Shown here: positions 6,403 to 6,651 of the stretch, in pieces
Numbering within the stretch: position 1 is the stretch's first letter
Layout: each line of letters begins with the position of its first letter
Virus record (IMG/VR): IMGVR_UViG_2537561709_000011
Source of the DNA: a virus
Taxonomy: Duplodnaviria > Heunggongvirae > Uroviricota > Caudoviricetes
Reading direction: 5' to 3' (one strand)
DNA: 8,832 nucleotides
The notes under the pieces: generated by a model
Told to the model about the DNA's origin: nothing
Databases searched by the model: none
Seen by the model: the letters and a program-made list of their open reading frames with translations, nothing else
Program-made: the position numbers and the translations under genes

Positions 6403-6460
6403 AAAACCCTGAAAGATTTCTCCGGGTGCTCCAGTTGCACGTGGCAGAAATCCTTCAGGG
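6401..6460 (-). terminator. Candidate intrinsic terminator for minus-strand transcription: the unit-1 long hairpin followed on the minus strand by UUUUUU (+ strand aaaaaa 6401-6406)
   Basis: A 14-15 bp stem (with internal hairpin) immediately followed by a 6-U run on the minus strand. On the + strand the same hairpin has no T-run after it. Confidence 0.45.
6407..6460 (-). repeat. Stem-loop unit 1: outer inverted repeat 6407-6420/6447-6460 (14 bp, 1 mismatch) enclosing inner hairpin GTGC-tccagtt-GCAC (6426-6440)
   Basis: Read directly from the sequence. The mismatch is A/C on + and G-U on -. Confidence 0.7.
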
Positions 6461-6466
6461 TCAGCC

Positions 6467-6520
6467 GTAACGGGCCTCTGTACAGAGGGCTCCAGTTGCC
6501 CAGAGATGAGCACCCGCTAC
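6467..6520 (-). repeat. Stem-loop unit 2: outer inverted repeat 6467-6474/6513-6520 (8 bp, 1 mismatch) enclosing core CCTCTGTACAGAGG and inner hairpin GGGC-tccagtt-GCCC (6487-6501)
   Basis: Read directly. The mismatch is A/C on + and G-U on -. Confidence 0.6.
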
Positions 6521-6525
6521 AGCCT

Positions 6526-6587
6526 GTTGTGATAAGCCGCTTTACAGTGAGCTCCAGTTGCTCAAAGAGGCGCGTTTTTATCACAAC
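6526..6587 (-). repeat. Stem-loop unit 3: outer inverted repeat GTTGTGATAA/TTATCACAAC (6526-6535/6578-6587) enclosing core and inner hairpin (T)GAGC-tccagtt-GCTC(A) (6548-6564)
   Basis: Read directly; perfect 10-bp arms. The inner stem differs from units 1, 2 and 4 by compensatory changes. Confidence 0.7.
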
Positions 6588-6591
6588 CTGA

Positions 6592-6651
6592 CCGCGATAA
6601 CCCGCTGTACAGAGGGCTTCAATTGCCCAAAGAGGCGCATTCTTATCGCGG
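6592..6651 (-). repeat. Stem-loop unit 4: outer inverted repeat CCGCGATAA/TTATCGCGG (6592-6600/6643-6651) enclosing core and inner hairpin GGGC-ttcaatt-GCCC (6614-6628)
   Basis: Read directly; perfect 9-bp arms. They share the inner GATAA/TTATC with unit 3 but carry complementary changes in the outer part. Confidence 0.7.

Follow-up and report, generated by a model that had tools for sequence, protein, structure and literature searches.

The 8,832-nt stretch of the Caudoviricetes record IMGVR_UViG_2537561709_000011 from IMG/VR (hereafter, the window) carries on its minus strand an array of four long hairpins at 6398-6659, preceded in the direction of reading by a fifth, damaged unit at 6715-6797. 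By sequence and structure, the units of this array are members of a family of small hairpin RNAs, and the array RNA is extensively complementary to the sense strand of a giant gene of Shiga toxin (Stx) phages that itself contains a single copy of such a hairpin. We estimate at about 50% the probability that the array is a trans-acting, multi-allele antisense RNA directed against this gene. Antisense hairpin RNAs of mobile elements are an already known kind of regulator; the family, its conservation across phyla, its fixed association with the MuF_C domain of the PBECR class, and its multimerization in a rival element appear to be undescribed. A search of Rfam 15 reveals nothing that overlaps the hairpins (the window at the gathering score, nine family loci at E <= 1, and the region 6300-6900 at E <= 10), a literature search by the core sequence found no relevant paper, and a literature search under the domain name PBECR returned, as far as titles and abstracts tell, nothing obviously concerned with an RNA partner.

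A pattern search of the minus strand identifies GCAACTGGAGC exactly at 6428-6438, 6489-6499, and 6551-6561, and GCAATTGAAGC at 6616-6626. These matches confirm the coordinates and sequences of the four hairpins that the initial annotation of the window had described at 6426-6628, including its statement that three of the four loops present UGGA and that the loop of unit 4 is AAUUGAA. The exact 11-mer occurs three times within 134 nt, compared to approximately 0.004 occurrences expected per 8.8 kb. Each inner hairpin, with the stem bases listed in the table below, caps an outer stem of 10-17 bp that is unit-specific in sequence yet self-complementary; the whole hairpins are 25-30 bp long. The units are 60-84% alike, and Tandem Repeats Finder reports nothing in the array because they are too divergent. 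The terminal terminator proposed in the initial annotation is present as well: the last hairpin, that of unit 1 (6406-6461), is followed by UUUUUUAUU (U-run 6405->6401), and the combination of a 16-bp stem with U6 is that of an intrinsic terminator, even if a simple terminator scanner with a loop limit of 8 nt skipped it. The inverted repeat of this unit (I1) is 94% complementary; read on the minus strand, the one mismatch seen on the plus strand becomes a G.U pair. A U-run also follows unit 5 (UUUU) and is missing after units 2-4, as expected within an array.

Three features of the locus had been overlooked, namely, the degenerate unit 5 (~6715-6797), two hairpins unrelated to the family, and a promoter-like block at 6828-6801. 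Comparison with six sister islands points to an ancestral array of five units, with the two unrelated hairpins located between units 5 and 4; unit 5 is intact in sister islands (L058, E = 1e-5; L064; L003). The candidate promoter lies in a 35-nt block, just after the perC stop, that is invariant in the seven island variants despite variable surroundings, and its distance from the first hairpin is the same as in other family members. A promoter at the family distance (TTGCTC-N16-TATAAT, 9/12) precedes only unit 5. Units 4-1 abut without promoters of their own, and the array is therefore presumably a single transcript. Its start is expected near 6794, some 20 nt past the point where perC stops. 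The array is most likely a read-through concatenation, in which unit 5 retains the family promoter and unit 1 retains the terminator.

Relative to shuffled sequences, the folding z-score of the region is -6.8 for the minus strand and -5.1 for the plus strand. Standard pairs fill 98% of the 902 pair cells in the alignment of the seven island variants, nine pairs show compensatory double changes, and more than 20 pairs are altered on one side only, with the pairing kept via G.U. The inner stems alternate among the islands between GGGC/GCCC, GAGC/GCUC, UGGC/GCCA, and AGGC/GCCU; between strains, the inner stem of unit 2 covaries from GGGC/GCCC to UGGC/GCCA and that of unit 3 from GAGC/GCUC to GGGC/GCCC, and the unrelated hairpin at 6684..6722 (helix 3) also shows compensatory and G.U changes. 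G.U pairs number 105 on the minus strand versus 6 on the plus strand, in a structure predicted on the minus strand. When the two strands of each island unit are folded separately, an independent comparison, 22 of 29 units favor the minus strand. Taken together, the G.U pairs, the promoter, and the covariance-model matches, which are found on the minus strand only (see below), indicate that the functional RNA is the minus strand, in agreement with the initial annotation.

The loops of the 31 scorable island units are AACUGGA, AAUUGAA, or AACUGAA. They differ at two positions only, which correspond to the Y and R of a YUNR motif (CUGG, UUGA, CUGA), the U-turn signature of recognition loops in antisense RNAs. 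Thus, the apical loops of the islands carry YUNR as do those of kissing-loop antisense RNAs. On the plus strand, the loop haplotypes (window 6426-6628, L003, L058, and L061-L064) are (C,G) in 12 units, (T,A) in 12, (T,G) in 7, and (C,A) in none; the missing combination is the commonest loop of the phage copies. Units that are (C,G) in one island can be (T,A) at the orthologous place in another. Such flips resemble covariation but may be due to gene conversion, given that the two loop positions are too close to pair.

A sensitive BLAST search started with the array identifies matches of 61 nt (unit 4) and 38 nt (unit 2) inside an 8.4-kb gene for an "LPD38/LPD5 domain-containing protein" in lambdoid prophages of more than 300 further Escherichia coli genomes, including BP-933W of EDL933. 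The phage gene contains a single hairpin, at a fixed position and with the gene on the strand opposite to that of the island RNA. There are two phage alleles with different, compensating outer stems (GCCGCGAUAA... and AACCCUGAUGG...). Unit 4 is identical to the 933W allele in 54 of 61 positions, and the orthologous unit 4 of island L003 matches a phage allele in 61 of 61. Unit 2 resembles the second E. coli allele (S19-651 type, 47/58), with the likeness in the inner half; for unit 1, the likeness to this allele lies in the outermost stem, and unit 5 is nearest to a third, L013-type phage allele (44/58). The duplex of unit 4 with the sense strand of the 933W giant gene has a predicted energy of -107 kcal/mol, and the duplex energies predicted for unit 4 range from -107 to -125 kcal/mol; unit 4 thus shows the extended complementarity that is expected of antisense RNAs. 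By match count alone, all 11 island-bearing genomes among the matches listed contain 2-4 matching places per record.

A typical family member spans about 65-75 nt and consists of a near-consensus promoter, a single long covarying hairpin with the apex CUUUGGGCAAUUGGAGCCCUCUAG, and a U-run. Roughly half of the copies are embedded antisense in polyvalent-protein genes, as is the single copy in the lambdoid phage gene of E. coli; the others stand alone or, in some cases, form arrays in other mobile islands. Pattern scans detect the exact or near-exact apex on unrelated, fully covarying outer stems in 35 IMG/VR contigs, 18 GTDB genomes, and 48 metagenome contigs. The genome matches come from Parcubacteria, Verrucomicrobia/Akkermansiaceae, Victivallales, Clostridia, Hahellaceae, Ectothiorhodospiraceae, and others. 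All phages of the 933W type carry a member of the family, as do a Pasteurella phage and several elements of Firmicutes, Verrucomicrobia, and Parcubacteria. The degenerate 22-nt pattern used for the genome scan is expected to yield about 17 chance matches in 596 Gb, and 18 were obtained. About 14 of the 19 genome-scan matches, however, are far more conserved than the pattern requires and possess long private stems, which establishes the family as real. The likely chance matches, or those without a clear stem, are L049, L050, L052, one copy in L053, and the weak L043.

The features of an independent transcript recur in these copies. Most of them have a U-run after the hairpin on the strand equivalent to the minus strand of the window, and G.U pairs are found almost wholly on that strand. 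A sigma-70 match of at least 9/12, with a spacer of 16 or 17 nt and a fixed distance to the stem, is present in 16 of 25 distinct copies versus 1.4% of 1,000 control windows; the promoter-bearing copies include some buried in open reading frames (ORFs), and a promoter of the family is expected to end 6-9 nt ahead of the stem. The seed alignment and the covariance model (R1) were built from 12 copies that do not come from E. coli. In the seed alignment, 85% of the cells pair, compared to 35-55% in slid controls, 14 of the 19 outer pairs are compensatory, and none of 500 shuffles reaches the score. The model recovers 51 copies in which 20 of 23 pairs are compensatory. In the window, it matches the minus strand only, with E-values (see table) that range from 2e-7 for unit 4 to 0.93 for unit 5, and what the model describes is a long covarying stem and the apex GGGCAAUUGGAGCCC with flanking CUUU/UCU.

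Some of the free-standing copies are found in informative contexts. An Oscillospiraceae island contains four tandem units, each with TTGACA-N17-TATACT, a hairpin of approximately 70 nt, and a U-run. Genes for an integrase, two HipA_C-like proteins, two Fic proteins, and one helix-turn-helix (HTH) protein lie alongside this array (L047 2150-2700), and no MuF_C gene is found within 8 kb of it. In a primase-DUF927 island of Hahellaceae, a free-standing copy occupies the equivalent position and is followed by Mrr and type I restriction genes, a neighborhood that fits a role in conflicts between mobile elements. Two-copy arrangements are also observed. A metagenome-assembled genome of Desulfobacula (L053) has two family hairpins on opposite strands, at 240-325 (+) and 376-460 (-), about 50 nt apart. 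In a Eubacterium-type conjugative element (L044 5644-6102; also L030 and L046), two copies are 374 nt apart, one inside the gene for a 312-aa MuF_C protein and the other intergenic, directly upstream of the gene for a 1,435-aa MobL-relaxase/Sel1-repeat protein; the 374-nt spacing recurs in many human-gut contigs (L077-L080, L091-L116).

Iyer et al. (PMC5512222) describe MuF_C as a predicted RNase and the phage branch of the Barnase-EndoU-ColicinE5/D-RelE (PBECR) fold; it occurs in polyvalent proteins, which accompany invading DNA by being packaged or transferred together with it. Among cultured phages, MuF_C is nearly confined to Stx-converting phages (187 records). The hairpin RNA is linked to this domain by position: in every ORF context, the hairpin starts about five codons past the end of MuF_C (PF18819), overlaps the peptide RGLQLPK, and is antisense to the polyvalent-protein gene. 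Among 53 distinct canonical copies, 25 come after a complete MuF_C domain and 3 after a C-terminal piece of it. The other 25 are free-standing, the class to which the copies in the window belong, given that it contains no MuF_C coding sequence. At L042, L057, and L115, fragments of MuF_C have decayed while the hairpin remains. A protein-first search, from which the hairpin-coded part had been removed, recovers the RNA in a metagenomic MuF_C gene (L065, E = 1e-12) where both have drifted (peptide AGLQSPL and apex GGGGCGAUUGUAGCCC), as well as in the Pasteurella phage Pmp11 (33% protein identity) and in P13374, the O104:H4 Stx phage.

These features suggest the following scenario. A minus-strand RNA of about 400 nt would be transcribed from the promoter at 6828-6801, directly downstream of perC, to the terminator at ~6400, and would comprise five diverged copies, one of them damaged, of what is normally a single gene of approximately 65-75 nt. 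The phage's own copy would regulate the gene that carries the RNase domain by acting as a cis-antisense RNA, much as lambda OOP, IS10 RNA-OUT, and type I antitoxins do. A kissing contact between the YUNR loop and the complementary mRNA loop would come first, followed by duplex formation along the long stems and by cleavage or silencing of the mRNA. The trans copies of the island would stand for several phage alleles (unit 4 for 933W/Stx, units 2 and 1 for the second E. coli allele, and unit 5 for a third type), and hence the island RNA could keep the giant gene of Stx-type phages down, whether these are resident or incoming, by pairing with its mRNA. By analogy with FinO/FinP, the FinO/ProQ protein encoded next to the array may be a helper or chaperone of the array RNA. 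Proteins of this family (FinO/ProQ/RocC) bind terminator hairpins with U-tails and promote antisense pairing. The initial annotation had named this neighbor as a possible binding partner, a reasonable suggestion; the gene adjoins the array in all seven E. coli island variants examined. In this scenario, the structure and its strand, membership in the family, the promoter and terminator, the tie to MuF_C, and complementarity to the phage gene are shown by the sequence analysis, and expression, in vivo pairing, an effect on the phage, and the role of ProQ are inferred.

Several observations weigh against this antisense hypothesis. Expression of the array and of the phage small RNA (sRNA) is deduced from the promoter, the terminator, and covariation, and the -35 element of the window promoter (TTGCTC) is weak and was not picked up by a consensus scan. 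Only unit 4 has a near-perfect known phage counterpart, and units 1-3 and 5 match the known alleles at 70-81%. None of the 31 island loops is the canonical AAUUGGA, and most of them would form one mismatch in a kissing contact with UCCAAUU, the loop found most often in the phage mRNA. The association with FinO is local to E. coli: two distant loci with 49-50% identical ProQ homologs (L059 and L060) lack the array, and the non-enterobacterial family copies show no ProQ association. Furthermore, an antisense RNA would be powerless against a protein that is already packaged in the incoming virion, and the conservation of the apex across phyla could reflect recognition by a protein instead.

A wider interpretation, which we offer tentatively, extends the antisense hypothesis to the whole family. 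The cross-phylum sRNA might be a built-in antisense regulator or RNA antidote of the PBECR/MuF_C module, allelic copies of which rival elements have captured and multimerized as an RNA-only, sequence-directed interference or immunity locus against invaders, including all 933W-type Stx phages. The capturing elements would be the P4-like E. coli island, the Hahellaceae primase island, and the toxin-rich Oscillospiraceae island.

The main alternative to an antisense function is that the RNA is a decoy or antitoxin of the MuF_C/PBECR RNase domain, i.e., a type III-like protein sponge. The apex would then be a ligand or pseudo-substrate of the RNase, the phage copy would keep the nascent toxin domain harmless, and the five island copies would titrate the injected or expressed enzyme. 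Such a function is compatible with an apex that is nearly nucleotide-identical across phyla on outer stems that are free to vary, and that free-standing copies keep as GGGCAAUUGNAGCCC despite the absence of a coding constraint; the tight positional link to a predicted RNase domain resembles that of a toxin and its linked antidote, the hairpin outlasts decayed fragments of the domain in the manner of orphan antitoxins, and the non-canonical island loops could be uncleavable variants. The conservation of the apex, however, could also result from the double constraint of the peptide RGLQLPK and the RNA fold; in L065, the peptide and the apex have drifted together. In the type III systems known so far, the antitoxin is made up of tandem repeats that precede the toxin on the same strand, rather than of antisense hairpins with their own promoters, and the combination of a YUNR loop with perfect cis-complementarity is classic for antisense. 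ToxI arrays share with the present one tandem RNA units associated with an endoribonuclease, but the window units are not near-identical repeats (none were found by Tandem Repeats Finder), there is no RNase gene downstream of them, and members of the family are either antisense to the RNase gene or unlinked to it. On balance, the decoy function appears rather unlikely. Much less likely still is a function of the opposite strand, in which the array, as the 3' untranslated region (UTR) of the convergent ORF, would imitate the mRNA target, soak up the phage sRNA, and de-repress the phage gene. All plus-strand island loops (UCCAGUU, UUCAAUU, and UUCAGUU) can indeed pair with the canonical sRNA loop AAUUGGA if wobble is allowed, whereas the minus-strand variants mismatch the mRNA loop, and anti-sRNAs are encoded by prophages of enterohemorrhagic E. 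coli (EHEC) (PMC4104026). Nevertheless, the G.U pairs, folding energies, promoter, U-run, and covariance-model matches all favor the minus strand, and a terminator scan found no plus-strand terminator after the array.

The proposal made in the initial annotation, that GGA motifs in the loops titrate CsrA/RsmA as in the CsrB/RsmZ-type RNAs, is hardly tenable. UGGA is present in three of the four window loops on the transcribed strand, and the canonical family loop AAUUGGA also holds GGA. However, the transcript of about 398 nt contains six GGA (three in loops), compared to 6.8 +/- 2.3 in shuffles, and one ANGGA. The loop is a conserved feature, as had been claimed, but the GGA within it is not: orthologous loops of the seven island variants switch between GGA and GAA (in L058, GGA is found in two of five loops), other family members have GUA or GGC at this position, and the stems covary. 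A loop sequence that varies on conserved stems is what the initial annotation had itself named as a refutation of its proposal. CsrB, CsrC, and RsmX/Y/Z are likewise multi-hairpin non-coding RNAs with a terminal terminator and some GGA loops, but their hexaloop hairpins are short, compared to the 25-30 bp of the array hairpins, and the Rfam models for these RNAs give no match over the window at the gathering score and only noise at E <= 10 in 6300-6900. Two further alternatives do not involve the phage gene. The array could be a ProQ/FinO-dependent regulatory RNA with other host or island targets, or a stabilized perC 3' UTR, with the hairpins as protein-binding, nuclease-resistant modules. 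The location downstream of perC and proQ on the same strand, the synteny kept in seven islands, and the general affinity of FinO-domain proteins for U-tailed terminator hairpins are compatible with this possibility; it is nonetheless improbable because it leaves unexplained the origin as antisense to a phage gene and the 61/61 identity to a phage allele, and because ProQ neighbors are missing in other phyla and the array is missing next to the 49-50% identical ProQ homologs. An equally low probability can be assigned to a passive stack of hairpins, derived from captured phage fragments, that insulates or terminates the convergent units (the perC operon and the 128-aa ORF) without any function in trans. 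The array does lie between convergent genes, unit 1 has a genuine terminator shape, and the units derive from phage sequence, but a single terminator would suffice for this purpose. Moreover, five units, their apical loops, and a dedicated promoter have been kept with compensatory changes across the island lineages, and homologous free-standing genes with their own promoters occur in unrelated islands.

If the array is indeed an antisense RNA, its closest known counterparts differ from it in several respects. IS10 RNA-OUT and lambda OOP are also RNAs of about 70 nt that consist essentially of one long hairpin, are transcribed from their own strong promoters, and are antisense within a gene of the same element; IS10 RNA-OUT is responsible for multicopy inhibition, and the family RNA likewise could act in trans on other copies. 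There is no sequence relationship, however, and RNA-OUT and OOP map, respectively, to the 5' end of a gene and to the 3' end of a small regulator gene, whereas the family RNA overlaps an internal domain boundary of a giant ORF, has an apex conserved across phyla, and is concatenated here into five units on another element. The systems FinP/FinO (F-like plasmids), FopA/Inc, and RocC/RocR combine kissing-loop antisense hairpins and a terminator with an adjacent gene for a FinO-domain chaperone. FinP, in contrast, has its target, the traJ leader, on its own replicon and contains two hairpins, compared to five in the array, the presumed target of which is on another element, a phage; the link of the array to FinO is limited to E. 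coli islands. In the type I toxin-antitoxin systems of Bacillus prophages (TxpA/RatA and BsrG/SR4), an antisense RNA is similarly tied to a toxic prophage product, and here too orphan antitoxin-like copies outlive toxin fragments; the toxin in the present case, however, would be a predicted RNase domain, of predicted toxicity, in a polyvalent protein of 2,000-2,800 aa rather than a small membrane peptide.

Several other identities of the hairpins were considered and rejected. The small RNAs AgvB, AsxR, and 24B_1 also come from Stx or lambdoid prophages but from other loci and with other sequences. AgvB and AsxR, which are encoded at the PR' moron site (PMC4104026), and the Pas sRNAs map to unrelated loci, and the microRNA-like 24B_1 of phage phi24B, UAACGUUAAGUUGACUCGGG, derives from a hairpin between lom and vb_24B_43 (PMC10732415) and differs in both sequence and locus. 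A mimic of the tRNA-Leu anticodon arm on the plus strand (loops UYCARUU) is incompatible with the G.U pairs, promoters, and U-runs, which place the RNA on the opposite strand. A -1 frameshift signal on the sense strand (an A-run plus a hairpin) is dismissed because no slippery heptamer is present in the phage copies of E. coli, and the A-run corresponds to the U-run of the terminator as read from the other strand. A small minus-strand ORF ending at the apex UAG would have only 8 open codons in the L042 sequence. The conservation of the promoter and the U-runs argue for RNA over DNA iterons, a site of single-stranded DNA (ssDNA) initiation, or an origin of transfer, although an ssDNA form might play such a role.

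The window consists of two joined elements, a lambdoid tail module and, from ~6229 on the minus strand, a P4-like integrative island (see table). The array occupies a 446-nt gap between perC and the convergent plus-strand ORF. Beyond its first ~12 codons, which presumably resemble the start of phage tail protein M (lambda M sequence), this ORF corresponds to the C-terminal ~56 codons of a 128-aa island protein, as seen from the translation of the intact island ORF (L001 11667-12053, +), for which no match was found in Pfam, PADLOC, or PHROG. The fusion is created at the junction of the two elements, at 6229-6240, where roughly 12 nt are common to both sides; homology to the tail genes stops at 6240. 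Given that none of 5,426 complete E. coli genomes covers at least 80% of 5900-6500, the junction is rare, or is a source-specific rearrangement or an assembly artefact. The array itself is chromosomal and present in 116 of these 5,426 genomes (~2%), mostly those of Stx-producing E. coli (STEC), and a megablast search with the array matched neither plasmids nor cultured phages. As it stands in complete E. coli genomes, this island encodes an integrase, an HTH regulator, an antirepressor, Ash and Icd-like proteins, and a P4-alpha-type primase or DUF927 protein, and it adjoins yicC in both genomes with inspected flanks (n=2). One of the island-bearing strains is O103:H2 12009, in which the island is near yicC.

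Features of the window, with strand and distinguishing characters (R1, covariance model of the hairpin family)
Feature	Position	Strand	Remarks
Lambdoid tail module	1-6240	+	Z, tail tube protein, G, T, tape-measure protein (3098-6193)
Convergent fusion ORF	6193..6402	+	Stops at the foot of the array
Unit 1 and intrinsic terminator	6398..6462	-	16-bp outer stem, apex GUGC-AACUGGA-GCAC, then UUUUUUAUU; R1 E = 1e-3
Unit 2	6463..6524	-	Apex GGGC-AACUGGA-GCCC; R1 E = 6e-7
Unit 3	6526..6587	-	Outer stem GUUGUGAUAA/UUAUCACAAC, apex GAGC-AACUGGA-GCUC; R1 core 6538-6572, E = 1.7e-3; inverted repeat I6
Unit 4	6578..6659	-	Outer stem GCCGCGAUAAG/UUAUCGCGGU, apex GGGC-AAUUGAA-GCCC; R1 E = 2e-7
Short hairpin unrelated to the family	6655..6680	-	Inverted repeat I7; helix 4 invariant in islands
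Hairpin unrelated to the family, 14-nt arms	6684..6722	-	Inverted repeat I4; paired in the minimum free energy structure
Unit 5, degenerate	6715..6797	-	Apex GGGCAACUG-AGUCC (1-nt deletion), then short U-run CUUUUCGG; R1 E = 0.93
Candidate sigma-70 promoter	6801..6828	-	-35 TTGCTC (6828->6823), 16-nt spacer, -10 TATAAT (6806->6801)
PerC-family regulator gene	6849..7142	-	Pfam PF06069, E = 3e-29; PerC family in RefSeq annotation
ProQ/FinO-domain protein gene	7162..7578	-	Pfam PF04352, E = 7e-26
SSB gene	7595-8044	-	Island gene
147-aa island protein, family not assigned	8041-8484	-	No match in Pfam, PADLOC, or PHROGs

In O103:H2 and other STEC (L001 11111-12790 and the sister islands), the array is flanked by as many as three genes of the PerC family, not all of them intact (some are split or truncated), and a Q-antiterminator-family gene and a YeeE/YedE transporter gene are located further left, which suggests a composite of several element remnants. 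The two loci with ProQ homologs contain repeated AAAAGTGTCAAC(C) motifs in direct and inverted orientation (L059 6129-6347 and L060 7076-7244) that are iteron-like and possibly represent an origin; L059 terminates in a (CTGCAAGG)n microsatellite with at least 16 copies. In the tail module, a GC-rich plus-strand hairpin, GCCCCGG...CCGGGGC followed by UUUUUU (2383-2424), is located directly after the tail tube gene (1553-2371) and came up as a weak spurious match of the covariance model; its form is that of an intrinsic terminator or attenuator, which would separate the tail tube gene from the G/T chaperone genes.

If the antisense hypothesis is correct, every 933W-type Stx phage, including the O104:H4 outbreak phage P13374, has an unannotated antisense RNA gene within its largest gene, and a P4-like island present in approximately 2% of the complete E. 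coli genomes expresses a multi-allele RNA that could modulate Stx-phage production. One mobile element would thereby turn another element's own regulator against that element. The family, with its short RNAs, clear loops, and cultivable phages and hosts, is amenable to testing, and would add an RNA component to the polyvalent proteins, invasion effectors that so far have been studied purely as proteins.

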